Part shown: positions 39,937-63,434 of the stretch, in pieces
How the letters are laid out: each line of letters begins with the position of its first letter
Numbering within the stretch: position 1 is the stretch's first letter
Origin: Terriglobia bacterium
GTDB lineage: Bacteria; Acidobacteriota; Terriglobia; 20CM-2-55-15
NCBI GenBank assembly: GCA_963664115.2
Contig: CAXWPJ010000009.1
Span: forward strand, 864,001-928,000
Reading direction: 5' to 3'
DNA: 64,000 nt
Notes under the pieces: model-generated
What the model saw: the letters and a program-made list of their open reading frames with translations, nothing else
What the model was told of the DNA's origin: nothing
Databases searched by the model: none
Program-made: the position numbers and the translations under genes

Positions 39937-39950
39937 ACGGGTTTCTACGC

Positions 39951-43442: not shown

Positions 43443-45069
43443 CCTGAAATCAACATCGTCCTGAACTGGTTTGAAGAACTGAAGGAACGAGTTATTGTCA
43501 AAAGTGGTGTTTAGGAGATTGATTCAAGCGGCGGCCTGATCGACTTGTGTCGCTTCGACACCATCGTTGAATTTCACTCCGATGATTACCTTGCTCAGAT
43601 CATCGAATCCTCGTAATCGTCGCCAATTGTTCTCAGCGCACTGGCCCAGTTTGAACATCATGTGCAGCATGCCATCCCGTGTCAGGCAACCTCTGGATCG
43701 CTTCGTTCGGTGTCGAATGGTGGCAAAGGTCGACTCAATGGGATTCGTCGTTCTGATGCTCTGCCAGTGCTTGGCCGGAAAGTCGTAAAAGGCCAGCAGT
43801 TCCTCTCTGTCTTTCTGCAGGCAGAGTGTGGCTTTCGGATACTTCGGTTCATAGGTTTCAATGAACAAGTCGAATGCCTTCTCGGCGTCTGCCTTCGTCT
43901 CGGCCTGCCAGATCGAGTGCAGGGCCTGTTTCGCCTTCGCCTGGACCGACTTGGGCAGGCAGTTGAGGACGTTCATGACTTTGTGCATCCAGCAACGTTG
44001 TTGACGTGTCTCGGGATAGATTTCCTCCAGTGCGGCCCAGAACCCCATCGCACCGTCACCGATGGCCAACTTCGGAACATTCATCCCACGGGACTTCAGC
44101 TTCAACAAGACCTCGCGCCAACTCTGTGTCGATTCCCGTACACCGTCTTCGATCGCCAGGAAACGCTTCTCTCCGCGTTCATTCACGCCGATCACGACCA
44201 ATGCACACAACTTGGTTTGTTCCGCCCGAAGTCCGCTGTAGATGCCGTCGGCCCAGACATAGACCCAGCGATCTGCATCCAAACGCTCCTCGCATCCGAG
44301 GCGGTACTGTTCGCCCCAAACCTGTTTCAACCGCGATACCGTGCTCGCCGACAGACCCTGCGCCTGGGGACCGACAAGAACTTTTAGGGCCTCACCCATC
44401 TCGCCGCTGGAAACGCCTTTCAAATACAACCACGGCACCGCTGCTTCCAGCGACTTCGTCTTCCGAATGTACGGTGGTACCAGGGCCGATCGGAACGTCA
44501 CAGCTTCGCCCGTCTTGGCACGGACCTTCGGGATTTGGACTGTTACCGGACCCAATCCCGTCTGCAGTTCGCGTTCCGGCAGATAACCGTTGCGTACCAC
44601 CCCGGCGTTTCCTGTCTCAGTTCGCCGGCCACCGTGCTGGGATAGCAGCTCTGCCAATTCGGCTTCCACTGCGCGTTGGATCAGTTGCTGTGCCCCAACT
44701 CGTAGTAGTTCTGTTACTGGATCCTCAATCGTTTCTCGACCTTCCGGTCCATTCACGTTACTCTTGCTCACAGTGGCGTATCTCCTATGGTTGCTTTGAA
44801 GTTTTGTCACAACAAATCAACCAGATACGCCGCTCTTATTCAATCCCTCAAACACCAGATTCGGTTATAACTGAAGGAACGGGTGCCGGTTCCCTGATTT
44901 CCGAGTTCATGTCCTGAGAAACGACATACGGGACTTGAGACTTTTCTTGCGTATAAATTCCACCTGTAGTTATATTTAGACAGAGTTTCACAGCTTCTCA
45001 AACTGCACACAAAGATCATGGAATCCGGCACCAAATTCGGCCATTACGAGATCCTATCCGTCATCGGTC
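43443..45069 (+). repeat. Kinase-end junction J1 (split by IS256)
   Basis: PEINIVLNWFEELKE|RVPVP* (stop 44895-44897), collapsed palindrome 44906-44940, MESGTKFGHYEILSVIG (45018-45068). Confidence 0.88.
43489..44872 (-). mobile_element. IS256-family copy 1
   Basis: Transposase 43524-44810; TIR gagttat; gaaggaac duplicated on both sides. Confidence 0.92.
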
Positions 45070-45171
45070 ACAGTTTTCACCGCGGATTCTCAGAAAGTCT
45101 AGTAAACAGAAACTTCGCGCAGTGCTCAAGACCTCAGACGAGAACGCTGCCCGACAATTAGGAGGCTAACC

Positions 45172-45546
45172 GTGAACAGGTTGTTCATATTGCACGTCGT
45201 AGCGATCGTGTTCACTGCCACATCGCTGTTCGCTCATCACGGGACTGCGATATCGTACGATGAGGAAGCTGCACCCATCAGCGTGAAGGGCACGGTAGCA
45301 GAATTCGCGTTCCGCAATCCCCATGTGACTATTCGTATAGACGCGGTGAACGAGAACGGCGAGGTTGTAAGGTGGAATTTCGAACACAGTCCCCCACGCG
45401 CGCTAGCGCAGGAAGGCTATACTGCAAGGACGCTGCAGCCGGGTCAAGAAGTGACCGTTGTCGCATTTCCTTCTAGGGCGGGCAACCCTGTCGGGCTTGT
45501 CGTACATGTGATTCTAGCCGACGGCAGGGAAATACTCCCCAGATGA
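45172..45546 (+). CDS. DUF6152-like secreted protein
   Basis: Signal peptide + AHHG...GTV.EFAFRNPH...LQPGQEVTV. Confidence 0.75.
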   Translation: MNRLFILHVVAIVFTATSLFAHHGTAISYDEEAAPISVKGTVAEFAFRNPHVTIRIDAVNENGEVVRWNFEHSPPRALAQEGYTARTLQPGQEVTVVAFPSRAGNPVGLVVHVILADGREILPR

Positions 45547-45769
45547 GGGCAGGCGGCATAGACGGAAGCTGTCGACAAGCAATGGCCACCGTGGGTAGCG
45601 GTTAATGGGTCCTGATTCGGCGCTGAAGCTTCGGCTGTGAGGGATCCTGGGCGGCGGCCTGGAAAGCTGACCACCGTTGAATCGTGAAGTCCAACGCGGA
45701 CGCCAGGCCGACGTTCCCTAGCCCCTTTGCTGCAATGTGTGGGCCCTAGCTAAAACTTGAGCAGGAGGT

Positions 45770-46660
45770 TTGAAAGTGCGACGTTTCATGATTCTGATCC
45801 CTATTCTCATGGTGGGGCTTCTGGCTTCTCTGGCAGCCTGCGCCGGCCCGGAAGCCGATGGAAACCAAGCCGATGGGAGCCAATTTGATCCGCGCGATCT
45901 TTCCGGAGTCTGGCAGCTACGTGAGGGCGATCGGGGCCTCAGTCCGACTGTCCCGCCTATGACCGAGGAGGGCGAGGCGAGGCTTTACGCCAATATCCCC
46001 GTACGCGGCCGCGCTCTGTCGCCGCCCGAACCCGGGGGTGTACTGCCCGAACTTGAAGAGGGAGAACACCGTGGCCGGGCTAGAGCCGTCATGCCCGCGT
46101 TCTCGAATGATCCGATGATGCAGTGTAACCCGCAGGGCTTCCCACGGCTCCTTTTCGATCCAGAGCTCGTTGAATTCGTTCATCTTGAAGATAGATTTCT
46201 GCAATTCTTCAACTGGGAAAACCGGCATCGCGAAATCTGGCTGGACGGCCGTGAAGTGCCTTCAGATGAGGACCGCGTTAACCTGGGTCTGGCGTGGTAC
46301 GGCCACTCCGTCGGTGAGTGGCAAGAAGATACATTGCTTGTCCAGACCTTCGGTTTAGACGACAGAGGATGGATCGACGTCTTCGGTTTTCCAAAAAGTG
46401 ACGAAGCACGGTTTGAAGAGCGCTACCGGCGTATAGACGCCGATACGATAGAGCTGCAGACAACAATGTATGACCCGAAGTACTATACGGAACCTTGGGT
46501 GTCGGATACGAAAGTGTTCAGGCGGGAGCCTCCCGAGAGTTATACCTTTTTCGGATGGTCCGGTTTGTTCTCCGGACTCGTGGATGGAATCTGCGCGCCG
46601 CTCGATGAGGTGGACGACTTCAACATCACCGTGCGCGATCCTGCGGGTACGGCGCAATAG
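45770..46660 (+). CDS. Putative lipoprotein (frequent DUF6152 partner)
   Basis: Lipobox LAAC; DLSGVW, C.P.GFPR, WYGHSVGEW..DTL, DPKYYTEPW. Confidence 0.75.
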   Translation: MKVRRFMILIPILMVGLLASLAACAGPEADGNQADGSQFDPRDLSGVWQLREGDRGLSPTVPPMTEEGEARLYANIPVRGRALSPPEPGGVLPELEEGEHRGRARAVMPAFSNDPMMQCNPQGFPRLLFDPELVEFVHLEDRFLQFFNWENRHREIWLDGREVPSDEDRVNLGLAWYGHSVGEWQEDTLLVQTFGLDDRGWIDVFGFPKSDEARFEERYRRIDADTIELQTTMYDPKYYTEPWVSDTKVFRREPPESYTFFGWSGLFSGLVDGICAPLDEVDDFNITVRDPAGTAQ

Positions 46661-46779
46661 GCATCCATAAGTTATCGGCTCACCCGGTTTCTTCTCCCTC
46701 TCCCTAAAGCAATTTTGCCGAAGGGTTCTGATCTTGCAGGGAAGGGTTGATTCTATCCCCCCAACCTCTACCGGGTTCT

Positions 46780-47308
46780 TCGCCTACGACCTGGACGCTG
46801 ACGGCCGCTTCCTGATCAATACATCTGTTAGACGACGAAGAGGCAGCGTCACCATGAATCATGGTCGTGACGAACTGAAACTTAAACCTGGAGCCTTGAT
46901 CGGCCTGCTTCCTCTGCGCTCTAGCGCCGCCCCTCAAATCAACATGGTCCTGAACTGGTTTGAAGACCTGAAAGAACGGGTGCCGGTTCCGTAGTTTTCC
47001 AAACTCAAGCCCTGAGAGATCATCTTCTCGGACATTGAGAATTTCAGCGAACGGATACCCTCCTGTCGCCTGCGGTTCCTCGATTGGCATCGACCGGACT
47101 GTATCTACCATTATTTCAATGGATTACGGTGACCCTCGATGCACTCCAATTCTCACTGTCCGACAGTGTCGTTTCTTAGGACTTGAGAATTCGATAGCAC
47201 CTAACTCACTCCTCTAGTATCTTTTACCGAGTTTATCTCGGTTTTCTCAGCGACACACTTTGAACATGGAATCTGGCACCAAACTCGGTCATTACGAGAT
47301 TCTGTCCA
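46780..47308 (+). repeat. Kinase-end junction J2
   Basis: YDLDADGRFL..., QINMVLNWFEDLKERVPVP* (stop 46994), IR arms 47002-47042 / 47149-47190, MESGTKLGHYEILS (47266). Confidence 0.9.
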
Positions 47309-47473
47309 TACGCGATAACGGCCATGGGTCCAGCGTGGCCGTAAAAGGTTTGACTGAGGATGGGTCTCCCAAAATCGCACAGGGCTTACCTGCCACTATA
47401 CGGATTCCAGGGAGAATGCAATTACGTGGAAGGATTTGGCATTCGTGACGAAAAATGGTGACGGTTCCGCGTC

Positions 47474-48811
47474 ATGAATAAAAGCGTCTTGAACAGGTCG
47501 AGAATTCGCTGGGATTTTATCATTGGCGGCAGCATGTGTCTGGGGTATGCGGCGTTGATGCTCTGCCGGACGACCGTCGGCGTTGCGGGACCGGCGATGC
47601 GTCTTGATACCGACATCGAACTGACGATAACGGCATTCGGTGCGATTCTGGGCTGGGGCATGGCGGGTAACCTTCTGGGCAAACTCACGAATGGAGTCCT
47701 TGCCGATAAATTCGGGGGGCGCAAGATATTTGTTTTGGCTATCTGCGTTGCCGCGACCGCCATCTGCTCGTTTGGGATGGTTTCAGAAAGCAGCAGCTTT
47801 TTTCTGTTTTATTTCCTCACCCTTTTTGCCAAATCTGCTGGTTGGCCGGCCATGGCCAATCTCATCAAGGTGTGGTTCGCGAAGCAGAAGCACGGGCGAA
47901 TGTGGGGAATTATTTCCACGAGTTCCCGCGCGAGCGCCGTGGGAGCTACGCTTCTTCTAAGCAGTCTGTTGCTCATCGTGTCGTGGAGAGGGCTATTTTT
48001 TGTGGCTGCTGCCATCACGGCTATCGTTTTCGCAGTGCTTGCTAAGCTGCTTAAGGGCGCCCCGTCAGAGCTTAGCTTGTCGCTTCCCGATAACCCAGAG
48101 ATCGGGAGTCCAATGTCAGGTCGGACACAGGTTCATCCTTTGGACGAACTGAAAACCTTCGAAGCATTGGCTGTCTTTTTTAGGAGTCCGCGCTTTTGGT
48201 TGATCAGCATCAGTCTGATGGGCTTGGCGGTTTTGTTTGAATTTCAAGTCTTTCTTCCCATTTATCTCAGTGAGTCCTTCGGTTTATCGCCCGCTCAGGC
48301 CGGCACGGCATCGTCCATTTTCCCACTAGGTTGTCTGATCGGAGTTTTCGCTGGAGGATTTGTCTATGACAAGCTCTCGAAAAAGGCGTTGACTGCTATT
48401 TTGGGCGGCATGTCGGGTTTGGGCTTGCTGTGTCTTACGCTGCTATTGATGCTTTCCAATTTGGACTTGGATCCGCGATTGGAACTTATGCTAACCATTG
48501 GCACGATTTTCGTATTCGGCTGTGCAATCTCACCGGCCTATTATTTGCCAATGAGCGTGTTTTCAATAAACTTTGGCGGCAGGCATTGCGGCCTTTTAAT
48601 CGGACTCATCGATGCAATCGGATATACCGGCGCGATGGTATTTGATTTTGTGGGAGGTTCGGTCGCTGACCAGCAGGGGGGATGGCAGAGTTTCCTGACT
48701 ATTCTCGTCCTTGTCTCCTTGACGGTGACGGTTACCATGACGCTATTTTTGTATCTGGATTTTCGCCATTCGTTACCACTACGGAAATATAATTTGGAAT
48801 TCCAAGTATGA
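47474..48811 (+). CDS. MFS transporter, GlpT/UhpC (OPA)-like
   Basis: About 12 TMs; GVLADKFGGRK, GWPA...WF...GRMWG. Confidence 0.85.
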   Translation: MNKSVLNRSRIRWDFIIGGSMCLGYAALMLCRTTVGVAGPAMRLDTDIELTITAFGAILGWGMAGNLLGKLTNGVLADKFGGRKIFVLAICVAATAICSFGMVSESSSFFLFYFLTLFAKSAGWPAMANLIKVWFAKQKHGRMWGIISTSSRASAVGATLLLSSLLLIVSWRGLFFVAAAITAIVFAVLAKLLKGAPSELSLSLPDNPEIGSPMSGRTQVHPLDELKTFEALAVFFRSPRFWLISISLMGLAVLFEFQVFLPIYLSESFGLSPAQAGTASSIFPLGCLIGVFAGGFVYDKLSKKALTAILGGMSGLGLLCLTLLLMLSNLDLDPRLELMLTIGTIFVFGCAISPAYYLPMSVFSINFGGRHCGLLIGLIDAIGYTGAMVFDFVGGSVADQQGGWQSFLTILVLVSLTVTVTMTLFLYLDFRHSLPLRKYNLEFQV

Positions 48812-48825
48812 GCACTCGAAAAAGT

Positions 48826-49069
48826 ACTGAAGGAACGCGGGTACCGTGAAGCAGGCCGTTCGTCCCTGCCTACCGCTGAAATCCATTCTCAAGTCCTGAC
48901 AAATCATCTTGTCGGACATTGAGAAATGGTCGATTTACTGGGGTTTCTCACTGTCCGACAAGGTCGTTTCTCAGGACCAGAGAGTTTTCTCGCGTATAAA
49001 TCCCATCTGTAGTTAGATTTACGCAACTTTTCGCGGTTCGGTCAGCGACACACTAGAACGATGGAATCC
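48826..49069 (+). repeat. Kinase-end junction J3
   Basis: ctgaaggaacg remnant, IR arms 48886-48926 / 48944-48984, gcgtataaat..ctgtagttagattt tract, atggaatcc at 49061. Confidence 0.85.
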
Positions 49070-49320
49070 AACGCGCGCTTGCGCGAGCACATGCGCGCGC
49101 AGGGCCTGCCGGTGCCGTCCGTGGAGTGGGACGGCCCCGCGGAGACAAGCTCACAGTAGACTCTGCCCATGGCCAGCATAATCAATTGTTTTAATTTTTT
49201 TCCGCCCAACACAAGTTACTCTTCGATCCTATCTTTGGGATACAGTACGTACAACGTCGCGGAGCAACTCCCGCCACAGTTCTCGGATTGATTATTGAAC
49301 AAGCGATTGAGGAACCCAAA

Positions 49321-51509
49321 ATGATTGAAGATAGATTCGAAAGCCGCCGCCGATTTCTCGCTGGTTGTGCGGTTGCCACCGGGGCCACTGCCCTTGGAGC
49401 GAACATCCCGACCGCGGCGGCACAGGAATCCGGATACGTTATCGATACTCCTAAAGTGGTATCGATGGAGGTCGCTGGGACTCGTGATCGATTCCCTGTT
49501 AGACGAGTTTTCTGTCTTGGCCGCAACTACCGGGCCCACGCGATCGAATCCGGGGACAATCCGGATGAAAACCCTCCCTTCTTCTTTATTAAACCTAGGG
49601 ACGCGGTTGTAGAGAGCCGGAGTTATAACCGAATCTGGTGTTTGAGGGATTGAATAAGAGCGGCGTATCTGGTTGATTTGTTGTGACAAAACTTCAAAGC
49701 AACCATAGGAGATACGCCACTGTGAGCAAGAGTAACGTGAATGGACCGGAAGGTCGAGAAACGATTGAGGATCCAGTAACAGAACTACTACGAGTTGGGG
49801 CACAGCAACTGATCCAACGCGCAGTGGAAGCCGAATTGGCAGAGCTGCTATCCCAGCACGGTGGCCGGCGAACTGAGACAGGAAACGCCGGGGTGGTACG
49901 CAACGGTTATCTGCCGGAACGCGAACTGCAGACGGGATTGGGTCCGGTAACAGTCCAAATCCCGAAGGTCCGTGCCAAGACGGGCGAAGCTGTGACGTTC
50001 CGATCGGCCCTGGTACCACCGTACATTCGGAAGACGAAGTCGCTGGAAGCAGCGGTGCCGTGGTTGTATTTGAAAGGCGTTTCCAGCGGCGAGATGGGTG
50101 AGGCCCTAAAAGTTCTTGTCGGTCCCCAGGCGCAGGGTCTGTCGGCGAGCACGGTATCGCGGTTGAAACAGGTTTGGGGCGAACAGTACCGCCTCGGATG
50201 CGAGGAGCGTTTGGATGCAGATCGCTGGGTCTATGTCTGGGCCGACGGCATCTACAGCGGACTTCGGGCGGAACAAACCAAGTTGTGTGCATTGGTCGTG
50301 ATCGGCGTGAATGAACGCGGAGAGAAGCGTTTCCTGGCGATCGAAGACGGTGTACGGGAATCGACACAGAGTTGGCGCGAGGTCTTGTTGAAGCTGAAGT
50401 CCCGTGGGATGAATGTTCCGAAGTTGGCCATCGGTGACGGTGCGATGGGGTTCTGGGCCGCACTGGAGGAAATCTATCCCGAGACACGTCAACAACGTTG
50501 CTGGATGCACAAAGTCATGAACGTCCTCAACTGCCTGCCCAAGTCGGTCCAGGCGAAGGCGAAACAGGCCCTGCACTCGATCTGGCAGGCCGAGACGAAG
50601 GCAGACGCCGAGAAGGCATTCGACTTGTTCATTGAAACCTATGAACCGAAGTATCCGAAAGCCACACTCTGCCTGCAGAAAGACAGAGAGGAACTGCTGG
50701 CCTTTTACGACTTTCCGGCCAAGCACTGGCAGAGCATCAGAACGACGAATCCCATTGAGTCGACCTTTGCCACCATTCGACACCGAACGAAGCGATCCAG
50801 AGGTTGCCTGACACGGGATGGCATGCTGCACATGATGTTCAAACTGGGCCAGTGCGCTGAGAACAATTGGCGACGATTACGAGGATTCGATGATCTGAGC
50901 AAGGTAATCATCGGAGTGAAATTCAACGATGGTGTCGAAGCGACACAAGTCGATCAGGCCGCCGCTTGAATCAATCTCCTAAACACCACTTTTGACAATA
51001 ACTCAGAGAGCCGCCAAGGTCATCCCTACCCACAAATGACTCGGGAGCTACGCTACGAGGGTGAGATGGTCGTCGCGTTAAAGAGTGGAGGCGCCAACAT
51101 CAGCGAAGCCGATGCACTCGACCATGTCTATGCGTACGGCGTCGGCCTGGACATGACTCGCGAAGATCTGCAGCACATCGCCCAAGACCTATCTCGTCCC
51201 TGGGCGATCAGTAAGTCATTCGACAACTCTGCGCCATGCGGGCCGCTCTACACGGTCGAAGTGAACGGCCACGCAGTGACCGGACGCATCTGGCTGAGCG
51301 TAAACGATGAAATAAAACAGGACTCGGACATTTCGATGCAGATATGGTCGGTCTCCGAAGGGATCTCCATCCTTTCACGGCACTACGAACTTGCGGCCGG
51401 CGACATCATCATGACCGGAACACCCGAGGGGGTCGGACTCGTAGAAAGGCGTGATGTCATCAAATGCGGCATTGAGGGCGTTGGCGAAATCGAGGTCCGG
51501 GTCACGTAA
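49321..51509 (+). pseudogene. Tat-signal fumarylacetoacetate hydrolase family protein split by IS256
   Basis: SRRRFL signal, [15 protein letters not shown]; rejoins in frame as VVESRQGHPYPQMTRELRYEGE...GDIIMTGTPEGVG. Confidence 0.87.
49620..51004 (+). mobile_element. IS256-family copy 2, 9-bp TSD agagagccg
   Basis: Transposase 49683-50969 (RNGY, WADG, QRCWMHK, RTTNPIES); TSD at 49611-49619 and 51005-51013. Confidence 0.94.
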
Positions 51510-51939: not shown

Positions 51940-52111
51940 GATATCGTCCTCAACTGGTTCGAGGAACTGAAGGAACGGGCCCCGGTCCCTTAGTACATCC
52001 CTGACCGTCCATGTGACTGATTAATTGACCTGAAATCCGACCTGTAGTCTGATTTATCCGATGCAACCCGGCACGAAACTCGGCCACTATACCGTGTTGT
52101 CACTTATTGGT
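51940..52111 (+). repeat. Kinase-end junction J4
   Basis: DIVLNWFEELKERAPVP* (stop 51993), acctgtagtctgattt, MQPGTKLGHYTVLSLIG (52061). Confidence 0.88.
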
Positions 52112-54421: not shown

Positions 54422-54423
54422 TA

Positions 54424-55310
54424 GGACCGCCCAAAATGCAACCATTCTTAAGGGGCCACTGGGCGGTCTGGGCGTCATCTCCCCTGACGGTGGACGAATG
54501 GCCGTCGAGACCGGCGGCGGGGAAGACGACGTATGGATCTTTGATTTCGCTCGCGAGATCCTGAGTCGGCTCACGTTTGATCCGTTAGACGACGGTTATC
54601 CAGTCTGGAGCGCAGACGGTGAACGGATCGCGTTTACCTCGGGAAGAGAAATTGTCTGGAAGGCGTCGAACAATACGGGCAGCGTTGAGCAGCTCGCCGA
54701 GAATCTAGGCGAAGGCACCCAACTTCCGAATCCTTATTTCTTTTCGGGAAACGGTACAGAGTTGGTCTTCCGGGAACAAGCGAGTCCAAACAACGCGGAC
54801 AACATCGGCATGATATCTATTGACGAAGACCGCGAGGCGGAATGGCTGTTGAGGAGCGAGTTCAACGAAAGGAATGCCGAATTGTCACCGGATGGGCGTT
54901 GGATGGCGTATCAATCGAATGAATCGGGTCAAAATGAGGTCTATGTGCGACCATTCCCCGATGTGGGGGCTGGTCGGGTGCCGATCTCCAACGCTGGGGG
55001 ACGCTGCCCTCTATGGTCTCGCAGTGGAGAGGAACTCTTCTATTTAGAACCCGGCACCATACCACGACTGATTTCAGTACGAGTGGAGACAGAGCCGAGC
55101 TTTAGCTTCAGTAACCGCCAGGCGCTCTTCGACTGGACCTACTTTGGTGGGGGCGGGCCTATTTCGGGCCGCGTTTACGATGTCGACCTCGATGGCCAGC
55201 GGTTCCTTGCGATCAAGGACATTGGCAATGACATCGATGTTGTTGTTCCTCAAATCAACGTCGGCCTGAACTGGTTTCAAGAGCTGCGCGAGCGCGTGCC
55301 GGCTCCGTAG
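54424..55310 (+). pseudogene. 3' remnant of a Ser/Thr kinase-TolB/PD40 propeller gene (junction J5 continues to 55346)
   Basis: SPDG/WSADG propeller repeats, LSPDGRWMAYQSNESGQNEVYVRPFP, ends INVGLNWFQELRERVPAP*; 5' end cut at IS630. Confidence 0.85.
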
Positions 55311-55346
55311 CAGACCGTGAAAATGATTCTCAAGTCCTGAGAAATC

Positions 55347-55490: not shown

Positions 55491-55703
55491 TTCTTTACGG
55501 ACGAATGGAAGGGCAAGCAGAACGCGATCATGCTGACGGACGACTTGTTCCGCTCTTCGGAGCAGTACCAAGCCACGAATCTACCCACTGAGATCGAGGC
55601 GCGGTGGCACCTTGTGGAGACTTCATGGAAACTCTGCCTGCCTCGCCAGGTCCTGACCGTTAGTCCCGATCCGGAGCCTCGGAATGGACGCACGCTCTCC
55701 CTA

Positions 55704-56854
55704 GTGTACCCCGCTCGAAGTAATGTAACTAAAATAGCTTTCCAACGTCCAATAGAGAATGAGGAAAGCACCGACCATTGAATTGGATGACAAGCAGCGG
55801 ATGGAGTTGGAGCGACTGAGTCGAAGCCGGAGTACATCGGTCCGGTTGGCGGAACGATCCCGAATTGTATTACTGGCCGCTGAAGGTCGGAACAATTATG
55901 AGATCGCCGCCCGCTTGGAGATCACGCGCCAGAAAGCGGGCCGCTGGCGCAATCGTTTTGTGGAACAGGGCTTGGCTGGGATCGAAAAGGATGCGCCGCG
56001 AAGCGGACGGATTCCCACGATCAGTCGCCGGAAGCGAGCCCGGATCGTCAAGAAGACACTGGAAGAGAAGCCCCCGAACGCGACGCACTGGAGTCGGGCC
56101 TCGATGGCGAAGGCCGTTGGCGTGAGCGAGTCCACGGTCGGGAAAATCTGGCGGGTCCATGGACTGAAGCCTCATCTGTCACGAACCTTCAAACTATCCA
56201 ACGACAAACGATTCGCCGAAAAGCTGGAGGATGTGGTCGGTCTGTATCTGAGCCCACCGGAAAACGCCATTGTCTTGTCCTGCGATGAGAAGAGCCAGAT
56301 GCAGGCCCTGGACCGCACGCAACCCGGGTTACCTCTGAAGAAGGGGCGGTGTGGCACCATGACCCACGATTACAAACGTAACGGGACAACCACGCTTTTC
56401 GCCGCGCTCAACATCCTGGACGGTTCGGTCATCGGAACCTGCATGCCAAAGCATCGCCATCAGGAATGGATCCGGTTTCTGAATCAGATCAAACGCGCCA
56501 TGCCGAAAGATAAGGAGATCCACATTATTTGCGACAACTATGCGACTCACAAACATCAGAAAGTCGTCAACTGGCTCAAGCGTAACAAGCGTTTTCATGT
56601 GCACTTCACGCCAACCAGTGCGTCGTGGCTCAACATGGTCGAGCGCTTTTTCCGGGATCTGTCCGAGCAACGACTCCGGCGTGGCGTTTTCCGCTCGGTC
56701 CCCGAGTTGATCCAGGCCGTGGAGGACTACCTCGCTCGTCACAATGAAGACCCGAAACCCTTCATCTGGACTGCAACGGCTTCCGACATCCTTGCTAAAG
56801 TCCAGCGCGGCCGGCGAAATCTTGATAAGTTACAGTCTGTTTAACGGGGACCAC
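55704..56854 (+). mobile_element. IS630-family copy C (intact transposase 55759-56844)
   Basis: Identical protein to copy B; CTAG flanks. Confidence 0.94.
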
Positions 56855-56980
56855 TAGCTTCATCACCCCCGGGGCCTCAAAATTCGCCTAAACGCCCCGC
56901 ATGCGGCTCCTACGCGTGATGTATACTCAGGATTCCAATCCCTGAATTAATAACAAGAGGAACAACATCTGAAGGGCGTC

Positions 56981-59398
56981 GTGAAATTTCTTCGACTTGC
57001 GTTGATCTGTATCTTCTTAACACCGTCTGCTTTCGGACAGCTTACCGCCCGCAATCCGGTCGACGAACTGAAGGACCATCTGGCCCTGGCCCTAGAGGAA
57101 GCACAGAGCCCTCTCACATCCGATCAAGAGCAACAGTTGGCACTACTCATTGAAGAGCAACGTCAAGCTGCGGAGAACCTGTTCGGCGTGACGTGGGATT
57201 TCAGTCAGGGGCCACCTCAGGGTGAGCAGAGGGACCAGGCCCTGGCCGGCATTCGCTGGATGTATGACGAGTTGAAGAATGGGCTTCCCGTTTACCTGAC
57301 CGAGGTGCAGAGAGTCGCATGGGAGAGTTACCAGAGTGATCAAGACGTGGAATTTTATATAGAAGAGGGTTCTGCGGGCGACGGTACCCAGAGCGGAAGA
57401 ATTCAACAGATTCGCGTGACAAACAACCCGTTCAATGTCGAAACCGGCCAGGCGAGTGGAGCGGGCCTGCGTGAAATGGGTACGAAAACAGAAGTGATCG
57501 AACGCGGCGGTGTTGGAGCCTTCCACGGCAGTCTTGCATCGACATTTCAAGACGAGTCGCTGAATGCCCGTAATCCTTTCGCCCGCAATAAGCCGCCCTA
57601 CTATGAACGGACTATCGACGGAAATATCAGCGGCCCCATCATTGGAGACCGCCTCTCTCTGAACTTCACGTTCAGCGACAATAAACAGGAGAACGTCGGC
57701 ACTGTTAAGGCGGAAACACCGACTGGACCGTTTTCTCTGGGCGTGACCCGGCCCGTGGTGAACCGGTCTTACGAAACCCGGGGCATACTCCGGATCGCCG
57801 ACGCTCACGCGTTACACATGCGTTTCCAATACGCCACCGAAGATCGTAAGAATGAAAACGTCGGTGATTTCGCATTGCCCGAACGCGCCTCGCGTACACA
57901 AACGCAGGACTACATGGTCGATCTCCGTGAAATCTGGACCCTGTCCGAGCGAACCGTCCATGACATCCGGTTTATATGGCGACAAGATCATAGCGAGACC
58001 AATCCCTTCAGTAATGCTCAAGCGATCATTGTCAAGGACGCGTTCACCGGAGGCGGGGCGCAGAATGAGCGCCGGGTGGATGGAAATGATTACGAATTGT
58101 CCAATCTGATTTACTTTGCCGGGGAAAAGGTGACCGTGCGGAGCGGATTTCAGATGTTGCACCGGAGCGAACGCTCAATCTCGGAAGACAACTTCTACGG
58201 CGAATTCACGTTTTCCGACCTTGCCAGTTACCGCGCCGGCACACCGCTGCATTATAGGGTTACGTGTTGCGATCCCTTGTTCGAATTGAGCCGCACACAG
58301 TTCAGCCTTTTTTCTCAGAACGATTTCAGACTGGCAAACACATTCACTCTGATGCTGGGTGTACGCTATCAGGGACAAACCAACATCAGCGATCGGGGTA
58401 ATGTGGATCCACGGATCGGCTTTGCATACGCGCTCGGGAATGAGACTGTCATCCGAGGCGGCTTCGGTGTGTTTTCCCAGTGGGTAAATTTCAATACGAT
58501 TGCGCATAGCCGTCTCGATGGGCAGCGGGTATACGAAATCCGGATCGACAATCCAGGGTGGCCGGACCCTTTCGCATCGGGCAGCATCCGGCCTCGATCC
58601 CGTCGTCAGATTGCCCCTGATATGGAAATGGCGTATTTCCCAACAGGACAAATAGGCGTGGAACGTAGTTTTTCCAACAATCTTTTTGTGACCCTGTCTT
58701 ACGAGTACCTTCGAGCTTTCAAGCCAGTCCGACGACGGGACATCAATGCGCCGTTACCAGAAACGGGCATCAGGCCTAATCCCAATGAAGGCCAGGTTCT
58801 TCAATTCCAGAGCAGTGGCCGGTCAAGGTATCATCGTTTGAGGGCCTCAATGAGGCAGCGGTTCGGCATCTTCGTAGTCAATGCAGACTACAATTACGTA
58901 TTCGGGATCGGTGATCAGGCAGATCGGAGGGGCTTCAGCGTGTACTCGCCTGTCGACAGTTATGACCTTAATAAGGATTGGGGTAATACAGCAAATCCGC
59001 GCCACGTCTTCAGTGCAGGCGCTAATGCCAGGTTGCCATTGGATGTCTACTTGACGACAGTCATCGAAGCACGGAGCGGTGGTTTTTACACCATCAGGAC
59101 GGGGAAGGACGACAACGGGGATGGAGTGAGCAATGACCGGCCCCCCGGCGTTGTCAAAAATAGCGAGGTCGGACCGAGCTATTTCGACGTCGGCTTCAAC
59201 TTCTCTAAGGCATTTGAGTTGAACTCCGGTACTGGGTTCGCCGGGCCTCAAATGAACGTCTTCGCAAATTTGAACAATGCTTTCAACATGCAACATCCAG
59301 GATTACCCAGCGGGGTCGTGACTTCTCCGTTCTTCATGCGGTCCTTTAATGCGACCTCACCGCGCACAATCGAATTTGGAATGGAATTTCAGTTTTAG
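56981..59398 (+). CDS. Oar-like TonB-dependent receptor / outer-membrane beta-barrel
   Basis: Signal peptide, LNARNPF, PRIGFAY, VIRGGFG, C-terminal FQF. Confidence 0.75.
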   Translation: MKFLRLALICIFLTPSAFGQLTARNPVDELKDHLALALEEAQSPLTSDQEQQLALLIEEQRQAAENLFGVTWDFSQGPPQGEQRDQALAGIRWMYDELKNGLPVYLTEVQRVAWESYQSDQDVEFYIEEGSAGDGTQSGRIQQIRVTNNPFNVETGQASGAGLREMGTKTEVIERGGVGAFHGSLASTFQDESLNARNPFARNKPPYYERTIDGNISGPIIGDRLSLNFTFSDNKQENVGTVKAETPTGPFSLGVTRPVVNRSYETRGILRIADAHALHMRFQYATEDRKNENVGDFALPERASRTQTQDYMVDLREIWTLSERTVHDIRFIWRQDHSETNPFSNAQAIIVKDAFTGGGAQNERRVDGNDYELSNLIYFAGEKVTVRSGFQMLHRSERSISEDNFYGEFTFSDLASYRAGTPLHYRVTCCDPLFELSRTQFSLFSQNDFRLANTFTLMLGVRYQGQTNISDRGNVDPRIGFAYALGNETVIRGGFGVFSQWVNFNTIAHSRLDGQRVYEIRIDNPGWPDPFASGSIRPRSRRQIAPDMEMAYFPTGQIGVERSFSNNLFVTLSYEYLRAFKPVRRRDINAPLPETGIRPNPNEGQVLQFQSSGRSRYHRLRASMRQRFGIFVVNADYNYVFGIGDQADRRGFSVYSPVDSYDLNKDWGNTANPRHVFSAGANARLPLDVYLTTVIEARSGGFYTIRTGKDDNGDGVSNDRPPGVVKNSEVGPSYFDVGFNFSKAFELNSGTGFAGPQMNVFANLNNAFNMQHPGLPSGVVTSPFFMRSFNATSPRTIEFGMEFQF

Positions 59399-59628
59399 AG
59401 TTCACCCTGGTCTGTTGCGTAATTTGCTGGATGCTACGGTAGACCGCAAGGAACATATCGTCGCCGGCGATGCGGTTTGCCGATACAGAATCCAATTAGC
59501 GAGCCGTTCTTAAGCAATTCCGTTCTTCAAAGAAATACGACCGCGGGAAGGCTGACAACCCTCGCGCCTTATTCTCACTTAAATGATGGCGGCCAGAGCG
59601 CAAGCACGAGGTGATTTATGGGTAATTC

Positions 59629-61263
59629 ATGGGCGAGACGCATTCGATGAGTACGGCGAAATTTCATAAGTTGGATGGCTTGACCTTCGACAACCGTTTC
59701 ACCCGCGAACTGCCTGCCGATCCGGACACTACCAACGCGCGACGTCAGGTCTATGGGGCCTGTTATTCTCGCGTTCGGCCCACTCCGGTTGCCAAACCTC
59801 GGTTGGTCGCCTATGCCCGGGAGGTTGCCGATGAACTGGATCTCACGCATGAGGATTGTGTGTCGCCGGAGTTTAGAGAAGTGTTTGCGGGCAATCGATT
59901 ACTCGAGGGCATGGATCCGTACGCCACCTGTTACGGCGGTCACCAGTTTGGACAATGGGCAGGCCAGCTTGGAGACGGACGTGCAATCAACCTCGGAGAA
60001 ACGGTCAGCAGCCGGGGGCAGCGGAGAACGTTACAGCTCAAGGGTGCCGGCCCCACGCCATATTCACGTACGGCTGACGGGCTGGCCGTTCTGCGCTCGT
60101 CGGTGCGGGAATTCCTGTGTAGCGAGGCGATGCATCACCTCGGAGTTCCGACTACTCGGGCTCTCAGCCTTGTGACCACTGGCGAGACGGTGATCCGTGA
60201 CATGTTCTACGATGGCCGCCCCAGAGACGAGCCCGGAGCCGTCGTGTGTCGCGTCGCGCCGTCGTTTACCCGTTTCGGCAGCTTTCAGATATTTGCCGTT
60301 CGGGAAGACGCCGGCGTGCTCAAGCAACTGGTCGACTATACGATCCGCATGGACTTCCCCCATCTGGGCGAGCCGTCGGCGGCTGTCTATCTGCAGTGGT
60401 TTCGTGACGTCTGTCTGAGAACTGCCGAGATGATCGTCGAATGGATGCGAGTGGGGTTTGTTCACGGCGTCATGAACACCGACAACATGTCGATCCTCGG
60501 CCTCACGATCGACTATGGACCTTACGGTTGGCTGGAGAACTTCGACCCGAACTGGACCCCCAACACGACCGACGCCGGAGGACGTCGGTACAGGTTCGGG
60601 AATCAGCCGGAGATTGCCCATTGGAATCTGGCTCAGTTTGCCGAATCCATCCTGCCATTGGTTGGTGATGTCGAGCCGCTACAAGACGCGCTCAACGGAT
60701 ATGTCACCGACTTCCAGACTGGTTGGCAAGCGATGATGGCTGCGAAGTTGGGGTGGCAACGGTTCGAGCCCGACACCGACGCCGAGCTGGTTTCCGAACT
60801 GCTAGCGATCCTTGAACTGGTGGAAACCGACATGACCCTTTTCCACCGTCTGTTGGCGCTGGTCGATGTCCATTCCGCAAAGTCGACCCCCGTTCCCGAC
60901 ACTGCACTAATCGAACCCTTGATGGATGCCTATTATGTCCCCGATCAGTTAACCGCCGACTACCGCGCACGTCTTGGAGCATGGATCCGGTCGTACCAGG
61001 ATCGTGTTCGAAAAGACGCCGTGCTTGACGATGAACGAAAGCGGCGGATGAACACAGTCAATCCCAAGTACGTGTTGCGAAACTACCTTGCCCAATTGGC
61101 CATCGACCGGGCCGAGCAGGGCGACGACTCGATGGTGCATGAACTACTGGAGTTGCTGCGGGATCCGTACAGTGAACAGCCGGATCACGAACGTCTTGCC
61201 GCAAAACGTCCGGAATGGGCACGACACCGCGAGGGTTGCTCAATGCTGTCCTGCAGTTCGTAG
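59629..61263 (+). CDS. selO: Protein adenylyltransferase SelO (YdiU)
   Basis: [46 protein letters not shown]-terminal CSS. Confidence 0.95.
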
Positions 61264-61315
61264 TCGTCGACGCCAGTAACTTGCGGTGGCGCACGGCCTC
61301 GACACGCACGGGTTT

Positions 61316-61636
61316 ATGAGTGAACCTAAAACAGCGGTCCGTTTTTCAATTGGCGATGTCATTCAACACGAACTATTCGACTACCGGGGTGTCGTTGTCG
61401 GCGTTGATCCGCAGTTTGCAGGAACCGACGAGTGGTACGCAACCGTGGCACGTTCCAGACCGCCGAAGGATCGCCCTTGGTATCACGTATTGCCCCACGG
61501 GGCCGCACATCAGACTTATGTGGCCGACCGCAATCTCCACTCAGATCACTCTGGCCGCCCTATTGAGCATCCCTTGGTTGAAGTCTACTTCACTCACTTC
61601 ATTGATGGGCGCTATGTTAGTGGGCGGATGAACTAG
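61316..61636 (+). CDS. hspQ: Heat shock protein HspQ (YccV-like)
   Basis: FSIGDVIQH.LFDYRGVVVGVDP, PWYHVL, TYVA. Confidence 0.87.
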   Translation: MSEPKTAVRFSIGDVIQHELFDYRGVVVGVDPQFAGTDEWYATVARSRPPKDRPWYHVLPHGAAHQTYVADRNLHSDHSGRPIEHPLVEVYFTHFIDGRYVSGRMN

Positions 61637-61741
61637 GCGGAAACAACCGAGTCTGTCGAGTCATACTCTAAAAGCAACAAGATGCAATCGAGGTAGTGGA
61701 CCGAACCGCTATCGAGGCAACGGGTTAAAAAGGGAGCGAAC

Positions 61742-61799
61742 ACAATGGGCACAGACATTCAGGCGGCCCGACAATGGGCACAGACATTCAGGCGGCCCG
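61742..61799 (+). repeat. Perfect 29-bp tandem duplication covering a start codon
   Basis: acaatgggcacagacattcaggcggcccg x2. Confidence 0.93.
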
Positions 61800-62016
61800 A
61801 CAGGGCTTGCTGAAATTCATCGCTAAGAAGGGTGACTCGATCCCCATGCGGGATCTCCACACACATAGCCTCGTCTTTTATCAAGCTGGGCATCAGGCGT
61901 TCTCGCAACTCATGGAAGGTCTTGTTGCGGACGAACTCGTCACCGTTGACGATGACGATGGAATGTTTCAGCTCACAGACAAGGGACGGGCCTCCCTCGA
62001 AAGCCAAGTCTCCTAG
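61774..62016 (+). CDS. Small winged-helix-like hypothetical protein
   Basis: LVADELV....FQLTDKGR wing pattern. Confidence 0.6.
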   Translation: MGTDIQAARQGLLKFIAKKGDSIPMRDLHTHSLVFYQAGHQAFSQLMEGLVADELVTVDDDDGMFQLTDKGRASLESQVS

Positions 62017-62051
62017 CCAGATTCCACTCTTTGGGCAAACAAGATGTGAGC

Positions 62052-62175
62052 CCCCCCAAAATCAACATCGTCCTGAACTGGTTTGAAGAGCTGAAGGAAC
62101 GGGTGTCGGTGCCCTGATTCTTGAGTACAAGTCCTGTTATATCCGGTTGCCGGCCAGTGAGATTTCGTATACATC
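62052..62175 (+). repeat. Kinase-end junction J6
   Basis: INIVLNWFEELKERVSVP* (stop 62117), degenerate caagtcctg...gtgaga. Confidence 0.85.
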
Positions 62176-62377
62176 CAGCCCCTCCGGGTTGTGGACTGCC
62201 TTCAGCTATCTACCTGGGCTTGTATCTGCCGCCGTTGAGCCCCCACAGGATCGGCCGACGAAAGGACCGAATCTCAATGCTCGTCTCTATGGCCAGACGG
62301 CCCTAATGCGCCGGCACGATCATACGACGTTACCCTGACTTCGCTAACTTCCCCGTCTTGGACCGGGCGATCGCAGC

Positions 62378-63007
62378 CTAATCGACGGCAAAACAATAGA
62401 CCAAGCCATCGCCACCCGAAGCCCGCAACTGTTCCTGGCTGCAACCTTGGCTGTCATGGGCGGAGTTCCAGGCTGCGCGGTCATGATGACCGACCCTGGC
62501 TTTTCCGTCACTGCTGCTCGTCCAGTTGTTGCAGGTCATGTCCTCGCCAGCCGGGAAGGCCGTACCGTCTAGCTGCGAGCCCGTCAGGATATCGTGCCGG
62601 TTGGGCGCATATGCACTACCGGGTATCAATCGGCCTCTTTCGTCAAGGGCGGTCGTGAAACTGATTCGATGCTCCACGCCGTGAATCTCCGCGACGCTCC
62701 GACCGATACGGCCCCCCTGAGCGTTATGCCATGGGCCTGTGCCGATGCGGTCGCGAGCGTTGACGGCATTCGGGCCTTGCGTGCTGAGGTAGGCACGCCA
62801 CGTACGGCCGCCCGCACCCACTTCAGCGGCTAGGCTCTGACAGAGCGCGTCAGCCCCGTCCAAACCACCCAGGTCGGCTCCTTCGCCAGAGCCTGCACTT
62901 GCGATAAAAAAGGTCATCGGTTCAGGTTGCTGCCCTTGGGCCAGGGCTGCCCCTGAAACCAGCAAACTGAGGCAAATGACACCGAAAATAGACGCGACTC
63001 TACTCAT
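62378..63007 (-). CDS. Secreted endostatin/lectin-like protein
   Basis: Signal peptide; DLGGLDGADALCQ.LA, WRAYLS, HDILTGS, C.NWTS, YCFA. Confidence 0.75.
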   Translation of the reverse strand: MSRVASIFGVICLSLLVSGAALAQGQQPEPMTFFIASAGSGEGADLGGLDGADALCQSLAAEVGAGGRTWRAYLSTQGPNAVNARDRIGTGPWHNAQGGRIGRSVAEIHGVEHRISFTTALDERGRLIPGSAYAPNRHDILTGSQLDGTAFPAGEDMTCNNWTSSSDGKARVGHHDRAAWNSAHDSQGCSQEQLRASGGDGLVYCFAVD

Positions 63008-63244
63008 GTCGGTTCTCCTTATTGTGAAACTGCGAGTGATCCAATGTTATCAAGCTGACGGTAAGTTCTTGATGTAAGCATGGTCGCAGTTTAGGTGTCA
63101 ACGCAAAGCAGATGGCCGCCCGATACAGAAGGAGAATGATGGCCCGAAGCGGTGTTTCGTCAAAAAAAATGTTCCGCTATGAATAGCACCCGCGAGTGTG
63201 AAGGTGGAAGAAGGCACTATTCTCTGTGCCGTTCCGACACCGGA

Positions 63245-63434
63245 AGGCATCCCTATGAAGCTTCGGACGATGGTCAGCGATTCTTGTTCTCGATTCCGGC
63301 GCAATCCGGAAGCGAAACTATCAACGTCGGCCTGAACTGGTTTCAAGAGCTGCGCGAGCGCGTGCCGGTTCCGTAGCAGACCGTGAAAATGATTCTCAAG
63401 TCCTGAGAAATCATCTTCTCGGACATTGAGAATT
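63245..63434 (+). repeat. Kinase-end junction J7
   Basis: YEASDDGQRFL...INVGLNWFQELRERVPVP* (stop 63376), left palindrome arm 63393-63432. Confidence 0.9.

Follow-up and report, generated by a model that had tools for sequence, protein, structure and literature searches.

Gene arrays around a kinase-flanking palindrome: a likely gene-swapping system in a small acidobacterial group

Two described systems come closest to the arrays reported here. In the pdif/xrs modules of Acinetobacter, as portrayed in parts of two accounts (PMC12907356; bioRxiv 2022.12.17.520857), genes lie between sites of dif geometry and the module encodes no recombinase, multi-module islands sit in chromosomes, inverted site pairs surround a module, modules are exchanged between species, and IS elements target the sites. 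The relevant part of the second account (bioRxiv 2022.12.17.520857) describes the movement of pdif cassettes as unclear. In integron arrays and CALINs, to the extent that the cited portion of one review covers them (PMC8618304), co-oriented short units each end in a palindromic site and are exchanged between genomes; the same portion lists the birth of gene cassettes as an outstanding question. These structural features recur in the arrays described below, which are tied to a Ser/Thr kinase-PD40 gene; we found no earlier description of such kinase-flanking site arrays in the literature. Because near-identical units are reordered in related species and their boundaries often fall at the site, the arrays of this small acidobacterial group probably represent a gene-swapping system that has not been described before.

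The array in the window

The window is the whole 64,000-nucleotide stretch analysed, from the genome called G000 here; similar handles denote other genomes. Junctions J1 to J7 carry the end (tail) of the kinase gene, J1 to J4 also its start (head), along with whole, variant or broken copies of a palindromic site that has two spacer classes: T sites follow the kinase stop codon, H sites are inverted and precede the kinase promoter, and arm A always faces the kinase.

43443..43488, +: J1 kinase tail, 5' part (by translation), cut by an IS256-family element
43489..44872, -: IS256-family element in the J1 tail, target duplicated (Pfam Transposase_mut; edges)
44871..44897, +: J1 tail, 3' part with stop codon
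44907..44938, +: J1 site, scrambled (one A arm, then an H-type spacer and another A arm)
44940..45068, +: J1 head, promoter-like region and 17 kinase codons, ATG 45018
45078..46661, +: DUF6152 gene with its partner, a captured block (Pfam; copies in relatives)
46938..46994, +: J2 tail
47005..47038, +: J2 T site, 34 bp, spacer ATCATC
47039..47152, no strand: J2 linker between T and H sites, 114 bp, with four related genome copies
47153..47186, -: J2 H site, inverted, spacer ACGACA
47187..47310, +: J2 head, promoter-like region and 15 codons, ATG 47266
47474..48811, +: MFS cargo (Pfam MFS_1)
48818..48850, +: J3 degenerate tail remnant
48889..48922, +: J3 T site
48948..48981, -: J3 H site, inverted, 25 bp from the T site, with which it is predicted to fold as a bubble hairpin
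48982..49069, +: J3 head, promoter-like region and MES, ATG 49061
49288..51509, +: FAH-family cargo (Pfam FAA_hydrolase), split by IS256 (49621-51004)
51940..51993, +: J4 tail
52003..52016, +: J4 class II site, right arm only (intact class II site in the G004 copy)
52017..52111, +: J4 head, promoter-like region and 17 codons, ATG 52061
52221..53176, -: MBL-fold hydrolase cargo (Pfam Lactamase_B)
53268..54424, +: IS630-family element
54425..55310, +: PD40 propeller remnant (ORF 54498-55310) ending in the J5 tail (55254-55310)
55330..55346, +: J5 T site, left half, spacer broken by a remnant resembling an IS30-family end
55701..56857, +: IS630-family element
56981..62016, +: composite cargo, TonB-type barrel, selO, hspQ-like (YccV-like) and 80-aa genes (Pfam)
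62061..62117, +: J6 tail
62127..62160, +: J6 variant site, spacer ATCCGG
62378..63007, -: secreted-type cargo, weak DUF1554 match below cut-off (Pfam)
63152..63376, +: propeller end and J7 tail (63320-63376)
63396..63429, +: J7 T site
63490..64000, +: GNAT cargo (Pfam)

The seven same-strand tail copies claimed in the preliminary description all translate as stated, on the + strand; the J1 copy is real but split by the IS256-family element, and J3 does keep only a degenerate remnant. The truncated heads reported after J1 to J4 are present (17, 15, 3 and 17 codons), and the remnant said to tie tail to propeller is indeed a PD40 ORF that terminates in the tail. Pfam bore out the proposed cargo identities (DUF6152, MFS_1, FAA_hydrolase, Lactamase_B, TonB barrel, SelO, YccV-like, GNAT) except for the lectin-like gene, which gave only DUF1554 below cut-off. 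The statement that no complete kinase gene is present is correct within the window; however, the array continues for about 25 kb past it and includes an intact copy with Pkinase and PD40 at C9:945169, 17 kb beyond the window end. The right half of the J1 scrambled site resembles the right junction of an IS110 'b' element and may be its footprint, and the remnant in the J5 T site we take, from its C-terminal motif, to be of the IS30 family.

The DUF6152 block has 91-93% identical copies in G002 and G004, with no head, tail or site within 1.5 kb there. The MFS unit, from H site to T site (47148-48928), recurs in G004 at 93% with another cassette downstream, the MBL unit with the adjoining propeller fragment is found at 97% in G004 and 94% in G001, and the secreted-type cargo has 96-97% copies in G002 and G004; pieces of the composite cargo were found separately in relatives. 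Contigs from other public runs cover the window units. In three of four public runs the IS256 element at 49611-51004 is absent and the FAH-family cargo uninterrupted, and a 29-bp duplication at 61742 is likewise missing from three of four. All seven non-RNA public runs carry an extra base at 52567; the MBL frameshift is therefore likely an assembly error.

A 34-bp site between kinase tail and head

The core of the junction is a 34-bp imperfect inverted repeat (14-6-14) between kinase tail and head, in which 14-bp imperfect arms A and B flank a near-invariant 6-bp spacer. The conserved stretch noted earlier between the coding ends is real, and this palindrome, sometimes present as two inverted copies, had been overlooked in it. 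The junction had also been proposed as a cassette-like exchange point with no attC and no adjacent integrase, which stands; its active part is the 34-bp site and not, as had been supposed, the coding tail and head.

Profiles made from the window's junctions and run on the genome at E<=1e-3 returned 144 tails, 88 heads and 190 arms, against 1, 0 and 0 in the reversed genome checked at E<=0.05, so that chance does not account for the recurrence. Intact full-length kinases number only four, and all score below every NCBIfam equivalog cut-off. The features fall largely (368/422) within 29 arrays, which span 0.51 of 4.89 Mb, about a tenth of the chromosome. Since 185 of the 186 sites lack a flanking duplication of at least 3 bp and the features are clustered in this way, an ordinary MITE, the alternative named at the outset, does not fit.

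The 186 sites of G000 (0 in the reversed genome) comprise 141 T, 27 H and 18 others. A head lies on the A side of 22/27 H sites and 0/141 T sites, and a tail on the A side of 68/141 T sites. Spacer information reaches 1.8-2.0 bits, and the conservation profile of one arm mirrors that of the other (Spearman 0.64, p=0.013, 14 position pairs), the pattern expected for a dimeric binder. Neighbouring sites form 72 direct T/T and 31 inverted H/T pairs; T-H doublets are predicted to fold into a bubble hairpin on both strands. The site shares 11-6-11 geometry with the genome's own dif; arm B matches the XerC arm at a raw mean of 7.0/11 (commonest allele 8/11), and arm A matches the XerD arm poorly (5.1/11). 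Class II sites, of the same geometry and at the same positions, occur in G001, G004, G007 and G013 and have arms unlike dif. Sites were present in 10 of 41 genomes searched, all from three genera in which the kinase tail occurs as well. Rfam gave no match better than E=0.48 across 43000-64000. No vector for the units emerged, neither a copy of the site in IMG/VR nor ComEC in G000 being found. As to a RAYT flanked by the repeats, two weak Y1_Tnp matches at C10:490-493 kb lie close to one isolated site match at 489.7 kb.

These data bear on ordinary decay, in which tandem arrays of kinase paralogues, accompanied by a REP-like repeat, suffer deletions and become IS hotspots, the cargo being incidental. 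Full-length kinase genes stand in tandem in the loci retrieved from genus g10, and together with REP-like hairpins in those of G013 and G021, and the arrays contain many IS elements; the intact kinases and tandem genes make paralogue-array decay part of the history. As a full account it is largely refuted and most improbable, given that cargo is common across species at 90-98% in different order, that the site is conserved more strongly than the coding remnants, with an invariant and asymmetric spacer, that a REP 5' tetranucleotide (GTAG/GGAG) lies near only 8/186 sites, and that the major arrays are strictly co-oriented (18/0, 18/0, 17/0, 16/0, 15/0).

Exchange of units and the elements that use the site

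Units have a median length of 1953 bp. Of the 72 direct-repeat units, 13 carry both kinase ends, 22 the tail only, 4 the head only and 33 neither; the site, not the kinase, thus defines the unit, and the view that every slot is a kinase gene with its interior replaced fits those 13 alone. The kinase gene itself behaves as a mobile module; two full-length copies, 93.7% identical, have different neighbours beyond their T sites. Two resolved head-cargo joints show 9-bp microhomology and lead into DNA found in other arrays, which fits within-array deletion as well as capture of foreign DNA.

Cargo blocks common to congeneric species are 90-98% identical, against 76-85% for syntenic core DNA. The identical order that would have refuted the capture idea is not seen within the genus, only 7/44 neighbouring shared blocks being neighbours in G000 too, and site-bounded units recur in differing neighbourhoods both within the genome and in congeneric species. 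G000 and 38 relative loci have 98 non-IS blocks in common (>=300 bp, >=90% identity, mean 94.6%). Of their 188 ends, 36 are no more than 20 bp away from a site (null 7.0±2.7, maximum 15). Against such a role for the site, 104 ends fall at no site, kinase remnant or IS edge, and just 4/98 blocks are bounded by sites on both sides. A comparison of 202 T sites drawn from four genomes gave 21 pairs alike in the downstream flank only and 25 alike in the upstream flank only; these pairs are not independent, and about 9 of the 25 upstream ones are IS-driven, loosely related or from duplicate contigs. Variable positions within the site are not cleanly inherited with either flank, unlike a single fixed crossover. 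Neither the circular or excised cassettes proposed earlier nor a site-to-site joint with long flanks appeared in the contigs of eight public runs, which break at these repeats.

We put at roughly 55% the probability of a pdif/integron-like cassette system with a putative trans-acting tyrosine recombinase, in which new units come from deletions eroding kinase modules. The kinase-PD40 gene would be the founding module, subsequently multiplied, and the site the target at which the recombinase excises, inserts and reshuffles units. Microhomology deletions would strip most kinase bodies while sparing the site-proximal ends, joining a head with its promoter, or a tail, to adjacent DNA, and ordinary chromosomal genes would thereby be turned into further cassettes bounded by sites. 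Directly repeated T sites could recombine with each other and free circles that re-enter at another T site; additional joints may stem from IS activity and from homologous recombination across the tail-site-head block of 100-250 bp.

Alternatively, the site might bind a regulator or nucleoid protein, the mosaic having arisen by RecA-type exchange within that block and microhomology deletions. Such a history would accommodate the mosaic site interiors, the block ends in kinase remnants (41/188; null 24±4.5), the two 9-bp joints, the 104/188 ends found at no site, remnant or IS edge, and the position of H sites just upstream of promoter-like sequence. We nevertheless consider it unlikely: the 33 units without head or tail retain only about 35-55 bp of imperfect homology, block-end enrichment is five-fold at the site versus 1.7-fold in kinase remnants, the place of T sites after a stop codon is a poor one for an operator, ComEC was not found in G000, and an integrase-bearing element uses the spacer edge.

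That element, an IS91-linked, IntI-related integrase element of G002, has entered an H site cleanly where the spacer meets arm A, with both halves kept; the best NCBIfam match of such an integrase is integron integrase, below cut-off (six-copy homologue scanned). IS110, IS30 and IS91-linked integrase elements all insert at fixed positions within the site, with IS110a junctions at T sites in 8/8 and 7/7 cases and IS110b junctions in 6/6. IS110b is present in 6/6 class-I-site genomes and 0/19 others, IS91-linked integrases in 8/10 site genomes versus 4/31 others. In one IS110b copy of G002 the left junction is of the H-site kind and the right one lies at a B arm, which suggests recombination between copies. 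Such observations would suit parasites as the engine, with site-homing, RNA-guided IS110/IS1111 recombinases and IS91-linked integrases mobilising flanking DNA between copies of themselves and no cassette recombinase of host type involved. This seems improbable to us. The putative target guide of IS110b shifts to match whichever arm is hit, as a parasite tracking a pre-existing target would; any site-specific parasite would be expected to co-occur with its site, and kinship and assembly quality confound the comparison; and the symmetric, invariant pattern at about 190 sites and the inverted site placement round the kinase are left unexplained.

As to the enzyme of the cassette system, the test for a co-occurring recombinase family suggested earlier brought up no dedicated one, and no dedicated integrase is common to all array genomes. 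Searches of G002, G003 and G004 did not find the 316-aa recombinase that lies between two H sites in G000, none of the IS91-linked integrases turned up in G003 (53 sites) or in G023, and no PF00589 match in G003 had IntI as its best match. XerC and XerD are the only recombinases common at high identity to G000, G002 and G003. No IntI-like gene lies in the window array. Within the cassette reading, host XerC, with or without XerD, and some other, unrecognised recombinase are equally probable candidates, the IS91-linked integrases are only slightly less so, and none is favoured.

Comparison with known systems

Intermediates stand side by side here: kinase modules still intact between their sites, tails and heads cut to all lengths, site-less donor genes in sister species, and reordered finished cassettes. 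A deletion-driven, DNA-level route to cassette birth is therefore directly testable. The site family is new, has two natural variants and is a candidate orthogonal recombination tool once its enzyme is found, and the putative target guides of RNA-guided IS110 elements track three different arms. A tenth of these genomes' accessory DNA is accounted for.

REP and REPIN sequences with their RAYTs are short palindromes, often inverted doublets with a short linker, targeted by IS110-family elements. The present sites resemble them in all three respects, but lack the 5' tetranucleotide, are confined to arrays, have an invariant asymmetric spacer, are bound to one gene family and mark exchange boundaries. 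Intact copies of the gene, with Pkinase and PD40, are like Ser/Thr kinases with a PD40 (TolB-like) propeller; it differs in surviving mostly as end fragments and in acting as a mobile module.

From pdif/xrs, as far as the accounts cited above describe it, the arrays differ in their poor XerD match at arm A and in class II arms that are not dif-like; in dif the XerD arm is the more conserved one, and it is degenerate in phage dif-like sites (PMC3025954, in part). Instead of alternating C/D and D/C sites there are mostly direct repeats (72 T-to-T), with a near-invariant spacer, about 190 sites over 10% of the chromosome, and sites linked to both ends of a kinase gene. With integrons and CALINs, again within the scope of the cited portion of PMC8618304, the arrays have in common the absence of an adjacent integrase, doublets (here T-H) predicted to fold as a bubble hairpin, and insertion of an IntI-related integrase element at GTT, here in H sites. 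In contrast to them, the single site is 34 bp long with RYYYAAC in 0/186 and GTTRRRY in 10/186 cases, cargo may be on the same strand (67) or the opposite one (45), is often multi-gene and keeps native upstream DNA, a promoter-like head comes with many units, and the putative IntI-like gene, at C9:714590, is 190 kb from the array with no site within 2.5 kb. Eight recombinase and Y2 transposase pairs in G000 resemble the IS91 elements with integron-like tyrosine recombinase treated in part of bioRxiv 542381; unlike those, they are inserted at fixed positions of kinase-flanking sites and have a putative role as cassette movers. We tentatively suggest that the arrays might constitute a third bacterial cassette system beside integrons and pdif, in which a mobile kinase-sensor module with recombination sites of its own on either side would serve as a cassette factory, deletions would fuse promoter and sites to arbitrary chromosomal genes, and the cassettes, moved by a recombinase new to cassette traffic, would circulate among co-occurring species and have built a tenth of the chromosome.

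Kinase ends, cargo and the 34-bp site

The seven tails (J1-J7), four heads and cargo genes reported in the preliminary description, tail and head being the 3' and 5' ends of a Ser/Thr kinase and PD40 propeller gene, were all recovered at their positions, and a Pfam search identified the remnant at 54498-55310 as a PD40 propeller whose end is the tail. The window corresponds to C9:864001-928000 of the genome under study, G000. Intact genes with the same two ends (877-902 aa) occur in this genome at C5:8574, C9:945169, C10:248476 and C12:20624; one of the four was scanned and combines Pkinase with PD40. The array of the window takes in the gene at C9:945169, 17 kb past the window end. Further features of the window are:

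1-193: 3' end of the chromosomal xerC, with obgE downstream
25308-27628: 495-aa ORF with methyltransferase-like motifs, then a truncated ORF; an IS630 element interrupts; judged by eye, the ORFs may resemble phosphorothioation- or BREX-associated defence genes
36800-43430, directly before J1: candidate composite transposon, two inverted DDE_Tnp_1_4 copies (presumably IS1380-like) around a nucleotidyltransferase, methyltransferase and CDP-alcohol phosphatidyltransferase cluster
52567: missing base that splits the MBL gene, contradicted by public contigs; likely a long-read assembly error
61742-61799: 29-bp duplication, contradicted by public contigs; likely a long-read assembly error
63721-63984: 132-bp tandem duplication inside the GNAT gene; probably an assembly error of similar kind

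A repeat search of the window revealed inverted arms of 40-46 bp within the junction "spacer". The site itself, TCAAGTCCtGAnAA-ATCATC-TTnnCGGAnnTTGA, comprises 34 bp, with arms A and B of 14 bp around six central bases. The junctions described in the window proved to recur across the genome: profiles built from them matched 144 tails, 88 heads and 190 arms in G000 (E<=1e-3), against 1, 0 and 0 in the reversed genome. These features are concentrated, 368 of the 422 falling in 29 arrays that make up 0.51 of 4.89 Mb. The large arrays are strictly co-oriented; relative to replication, array direction is mixed and differs by array. A weight matrix built on the arms alone counted 186 distinct sites in G000 and none in the reversed genome, the counts being slightly inflated by duplicate pairs of contig ends (C6/C11, C2/C12, C5/C9) that look like assembly overlaps.

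By type, 141 sites are T (ATCATC), which follow the kinase stop, 27 are H (ACGACA/C), inverted before the kinase promoter, and 18 are other. On the A side, a head was found at 22 of the 27 H sites, and a tail at 68 and a head at none of the 141 T sites. At H and T sites alike, the arm turned towards the kinase is the left one (A), and therefore the prototype module is H-promoter-kinase-T with inverted sites; a full-length, frameshifted module of this form lies at C5:155791. Heads retain a sigma70-like -35/-10 layout, a putative promoter read by eye. Among site neighbours within 8 kb, direct T-to-T is the commonest arrangement, with 72 units of median length 1953 bp. In 16 cases an H..T pair has its A arms turned inward, and in 15 a T..H pair has its B arms turned inward; of the latter, 8 have gaps of 24-30 bp and 4 of 114 bp. 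The T-to-T units contain head and tail (13), tail only (22), head only (4) or neither (33), and their cargo ORFs run along the array direction in 67 cases and opposite to it in 45.

The six-base spacer is near-invariant, and conservation is mirror-symmetric around it (Spearman 0.64, p=0.013). Target duplications, REP tetranucleotides and attC cores were not found as features of the 186 sites of G000, and the array part of the window (43000-64000) had no Rfam match. The left and right variable positions, viewed by eye for hairpin-templated covariation, displayed no evident pattern. The whole tail-spacer-head junction had been proposed as a recombination site or homology arm of an integron-like capture system; part of that interpretation stands, with the active element now reassigned to the 34-bp site.

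Distribution of the sites and exchange of units

Allowing 3 mismatches at most, we counted 136 class I sites in G000, 95 in G002, 53 in G003, 12 in G001 and 2 in G004, all of one genus, and a single one in each of two further genomes, G007 and G017. Class II sites share the 14-6-14 layout and the placement relative to kinase ends, have the spacer GTCGCC, and were counted with a stricter pattern in G001 (21), G004 (14), G007 (7), G002 and G013 (2 each) and G017, G021 and G023 (1 each). Neither was found in the remaining 31 of 41 genomes searched. An exact GTDB-wide scan, in a set that may omit the own and nearest genomes, returned 12 loci in three assemblies, all labelled Terriglobia; JGI metagenomes yielded 13 site loci. 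In the retrieved loci of genus g10, kinase genes stand in tandem at full length, accompanied by REP-like hairpins, likely the ancestral state of the arrays. L094 (G021:C46:180001-200000) and L092-L093 (G013:C3) contain tandem full-length kinase-propeller genes with GTAG-type REP-like hairpins between them, some translationally coupled, stop-to-start.

The preliminary description had pictured each slot as a kinase gene with its interior replaced by cargo. Cargo content differs between relatives and order is mostly not kept. Downstream of the orthologous polA, G002 has other content with arrays of its own, and no junction features were found in G001 (60 kb), G003 (40 kb) or G004 (40 kb). We compared G000 with 38 array-bearing loci of four relatives, selected for holding junctions, and obtained 98 non-IS blocks of at least 300 bp and at least 90% identity, with a mean of 94.6% against 76-85% for syntenic core DNA; 7 of 44 pairs of neighbouring shared blocks are also neighbours in G000. 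Plain decay of the kinase genes is most improbable as an explanation of these arrays, since cargo is shared across species of the genus in another order.

Block ends lie within 20 bp of a site in 36 of 188 cases (null 7.0±2.7, maximum 15 in 200 shuffles), in kinase remnants in 41 (null 24±4.5), at IS edges in 7 (null 1.2) and elsewhere in 104. Sites stand at both ends of 4 of the 98 blocks and at one end of 26. When the flanks of 202 T sites were compared, 21 pairs had only the DNA downstream of the site in common and 25 only the DNA upstream, with identity changing over at the site. The pairs do not count as independent events, and of the 25 about 9 reflect IS activity, a loose relationship or duplicate contigs. 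Exchange driven by insertion sequences seems quite unlikely as the general process. No crossover point could be fixed from the inheritance of variable site positions; the site interiors are mosaic, as a homology-driven mosaic would predict. We consider the latter unlikely as the main explanation. Site-specific recombination is the best, not the sole, account of site conservation and of the five-fold excess of block ends at the site.

Individual units illustrate the exchange. In G004 a 93% copy of the single-copy window MFS unit (47148-48928) spans H site to T site, and next to it begins another cassette, one that also follows T sites elsewhere in G000 and G001. For the MBL-plus-propeller unit there are copies in G004 (97%) and G001 (94%), and the TonB and DUF1554 genes have scattered further copies (95-97%). 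The DUF6152 pair is present in G002 and G004 (91-93%), where no head, tail or site lies closer than 1.5 kb; in the window the pair starts nine bases past the head end. Judged by eye, some cargo ends, such as those upstream of G000 C6:39777 and C9:1230956, look like an integron attC start truncated at the T site, which suggests that integron cassettes may have been absorbed into these arrays.

Head remnants end at scattered points, 32 to 800 bp, and tail start points are scattered too. For 17 of 53 heads examined, the DNA following the head has a second copy. These cases comprise 4 whole-unit copies, 5 IS ends, 2 joints where kinase and donor share 9 bp of microhomology, and 6 joints with short filler or a longer offset. 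The donors of both microhomology joints are themselves situated in arrays; therefore, deletion from the kinase interior and capture into an intact gene fit these joints equally well. New units may arise by deletion running from within the kinase into adjoining DNA.

The window stretch occurs in runs from about eight samples. The covered parts of eight public runs, studied as contigs, which break at repeats, showed neither a circle nor a precise excision joint; site-to-site joints in these runs had fewer than 30 bases on the short side and were regarded as repeat artefacts. An RNA run, X18, was a small share and was not used for inference. IMG/VR gave 0 site matches that would indicate a phage vector, and ComEC was not found in G000 (97% complete), so that neither search found a transfer vehicle.

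The best explanation, at a probability of roughly 0.55, is unit exchange by predicted site-specific recombination at the 34-bp site, with a putative tyrosine recombinase acting in trans. Against it we count the featureless ends, more than half of all shared-block ends, and the mosaic site interiors. With no circle and no vehicle in addition, we conclude that several processes shape the arrays.

Candidate recombinases and elements inserted at the sites

The dif site of G000 (C2, about 108.1 kb) lies at the GC-skew peak, is kept in five relatives and is built 11-6-11 like the sites. Arm B agrees with the dif XerC arm at a mean of 7.0/11 positions and arm A with the XerD arm at 5.1/11; class II arms look unlike dif. 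According to PMC3025954, conservation in dif falls on the XerD arm, which is degenerate in phage dif-like sites. At high identity, G000, G002 and G003 have no tyrosine recombinases in common other than XerC and XerD. Two dif-like sites in direct repeat 3.4 kb apart (C2:108110-108140 and C2:111510-111540, the second with an altered XerD arm), now with IS256 inside, are possibly a small Xer-integrated element.

The gene for a 316-aa tyrosine recombinase (C5:52189; C5:52063-53300, L021) lies between two identical inverted H sites, flanked by kinase heads pointing outward on both sides. It was rejected as the obligatory enzyme, since it was not found in G002, G003 or G004 and was found in four site-less genomes. 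Homologues stand divergent from a kinase head in G007 and downstream of an 11-6-11 palindrome in G030, so we keep it as a minor candidate. IntI was likewise rejected as obligatory, as it was not the best match of any G003 hit. An integron-integrase-like gene at C9:714590-715759, with an attC-like hairpin downstream, has no link to the kinase arrays. When 1822 array ORFs were clustered in search of a conserved gene at array ends, the clusters were kinase, cargo and IS families, and no recombinase common to the arrays was among the 70 largest clusters listed.

In or near the arrays of G000 are eight IS91 elements with an IntI-related recombinase, a subgroup already described in bioRxiv 542381. 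The IS91-linked integrases include those at C12:569262 and C1:92965. One IS91 clade meets H or T sites exactly at the edge of spacer and arm A; its G002 example is a clean insertion with both site halves intact. The flanks of a six-copy clade, as we reconstruct them, are class II-like sites. Such integrases occur in 8/10 site-bearing genomes versus 4/31 others; they were not found in G003 or G023, and we rejected them as the obligatory enzyme.

Two IS110 clades were found inserted at sites only. The 'b' clade (IS110b, IS1111-type), present in 6/6 class I genomes and 0/19 others, inserts four bases into an arm; copies include G000 C10:234845 (L163/L196) and homologues in L191-L199, L037, L040, L042, L043 and L046. 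Its 3' non-coding end contains a stretch of 8-9 nt that agrees with whichever arm is occupied, with distinct versions for arm A, arm B and class II. This stretch may be a bridge-RNA target guide; on our reading of these matches, IS110b would be an RNA-guided parasite that tracks the site, its variants an apparent natural reprogramming series of that guide.

Comparison with known systems

No description of these arrays was found in the literature, covered mainly as open-access articles without supplements. Pdif/xrs module islands are nearest in their way of working (PMC12907356; bioRxiv 2022.12.17.520857) and CALINs are alike in array form (PMC8618304). The arrays differ from integrons and CALINs in lacking attC and an adjacent IntI, and from pdif/xrs modules in the XerD arm; we therefore file them under neither system. 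That they form a distinct third cassette system is doubtful; we regard them as a variant of site-bounded cassette arrays.
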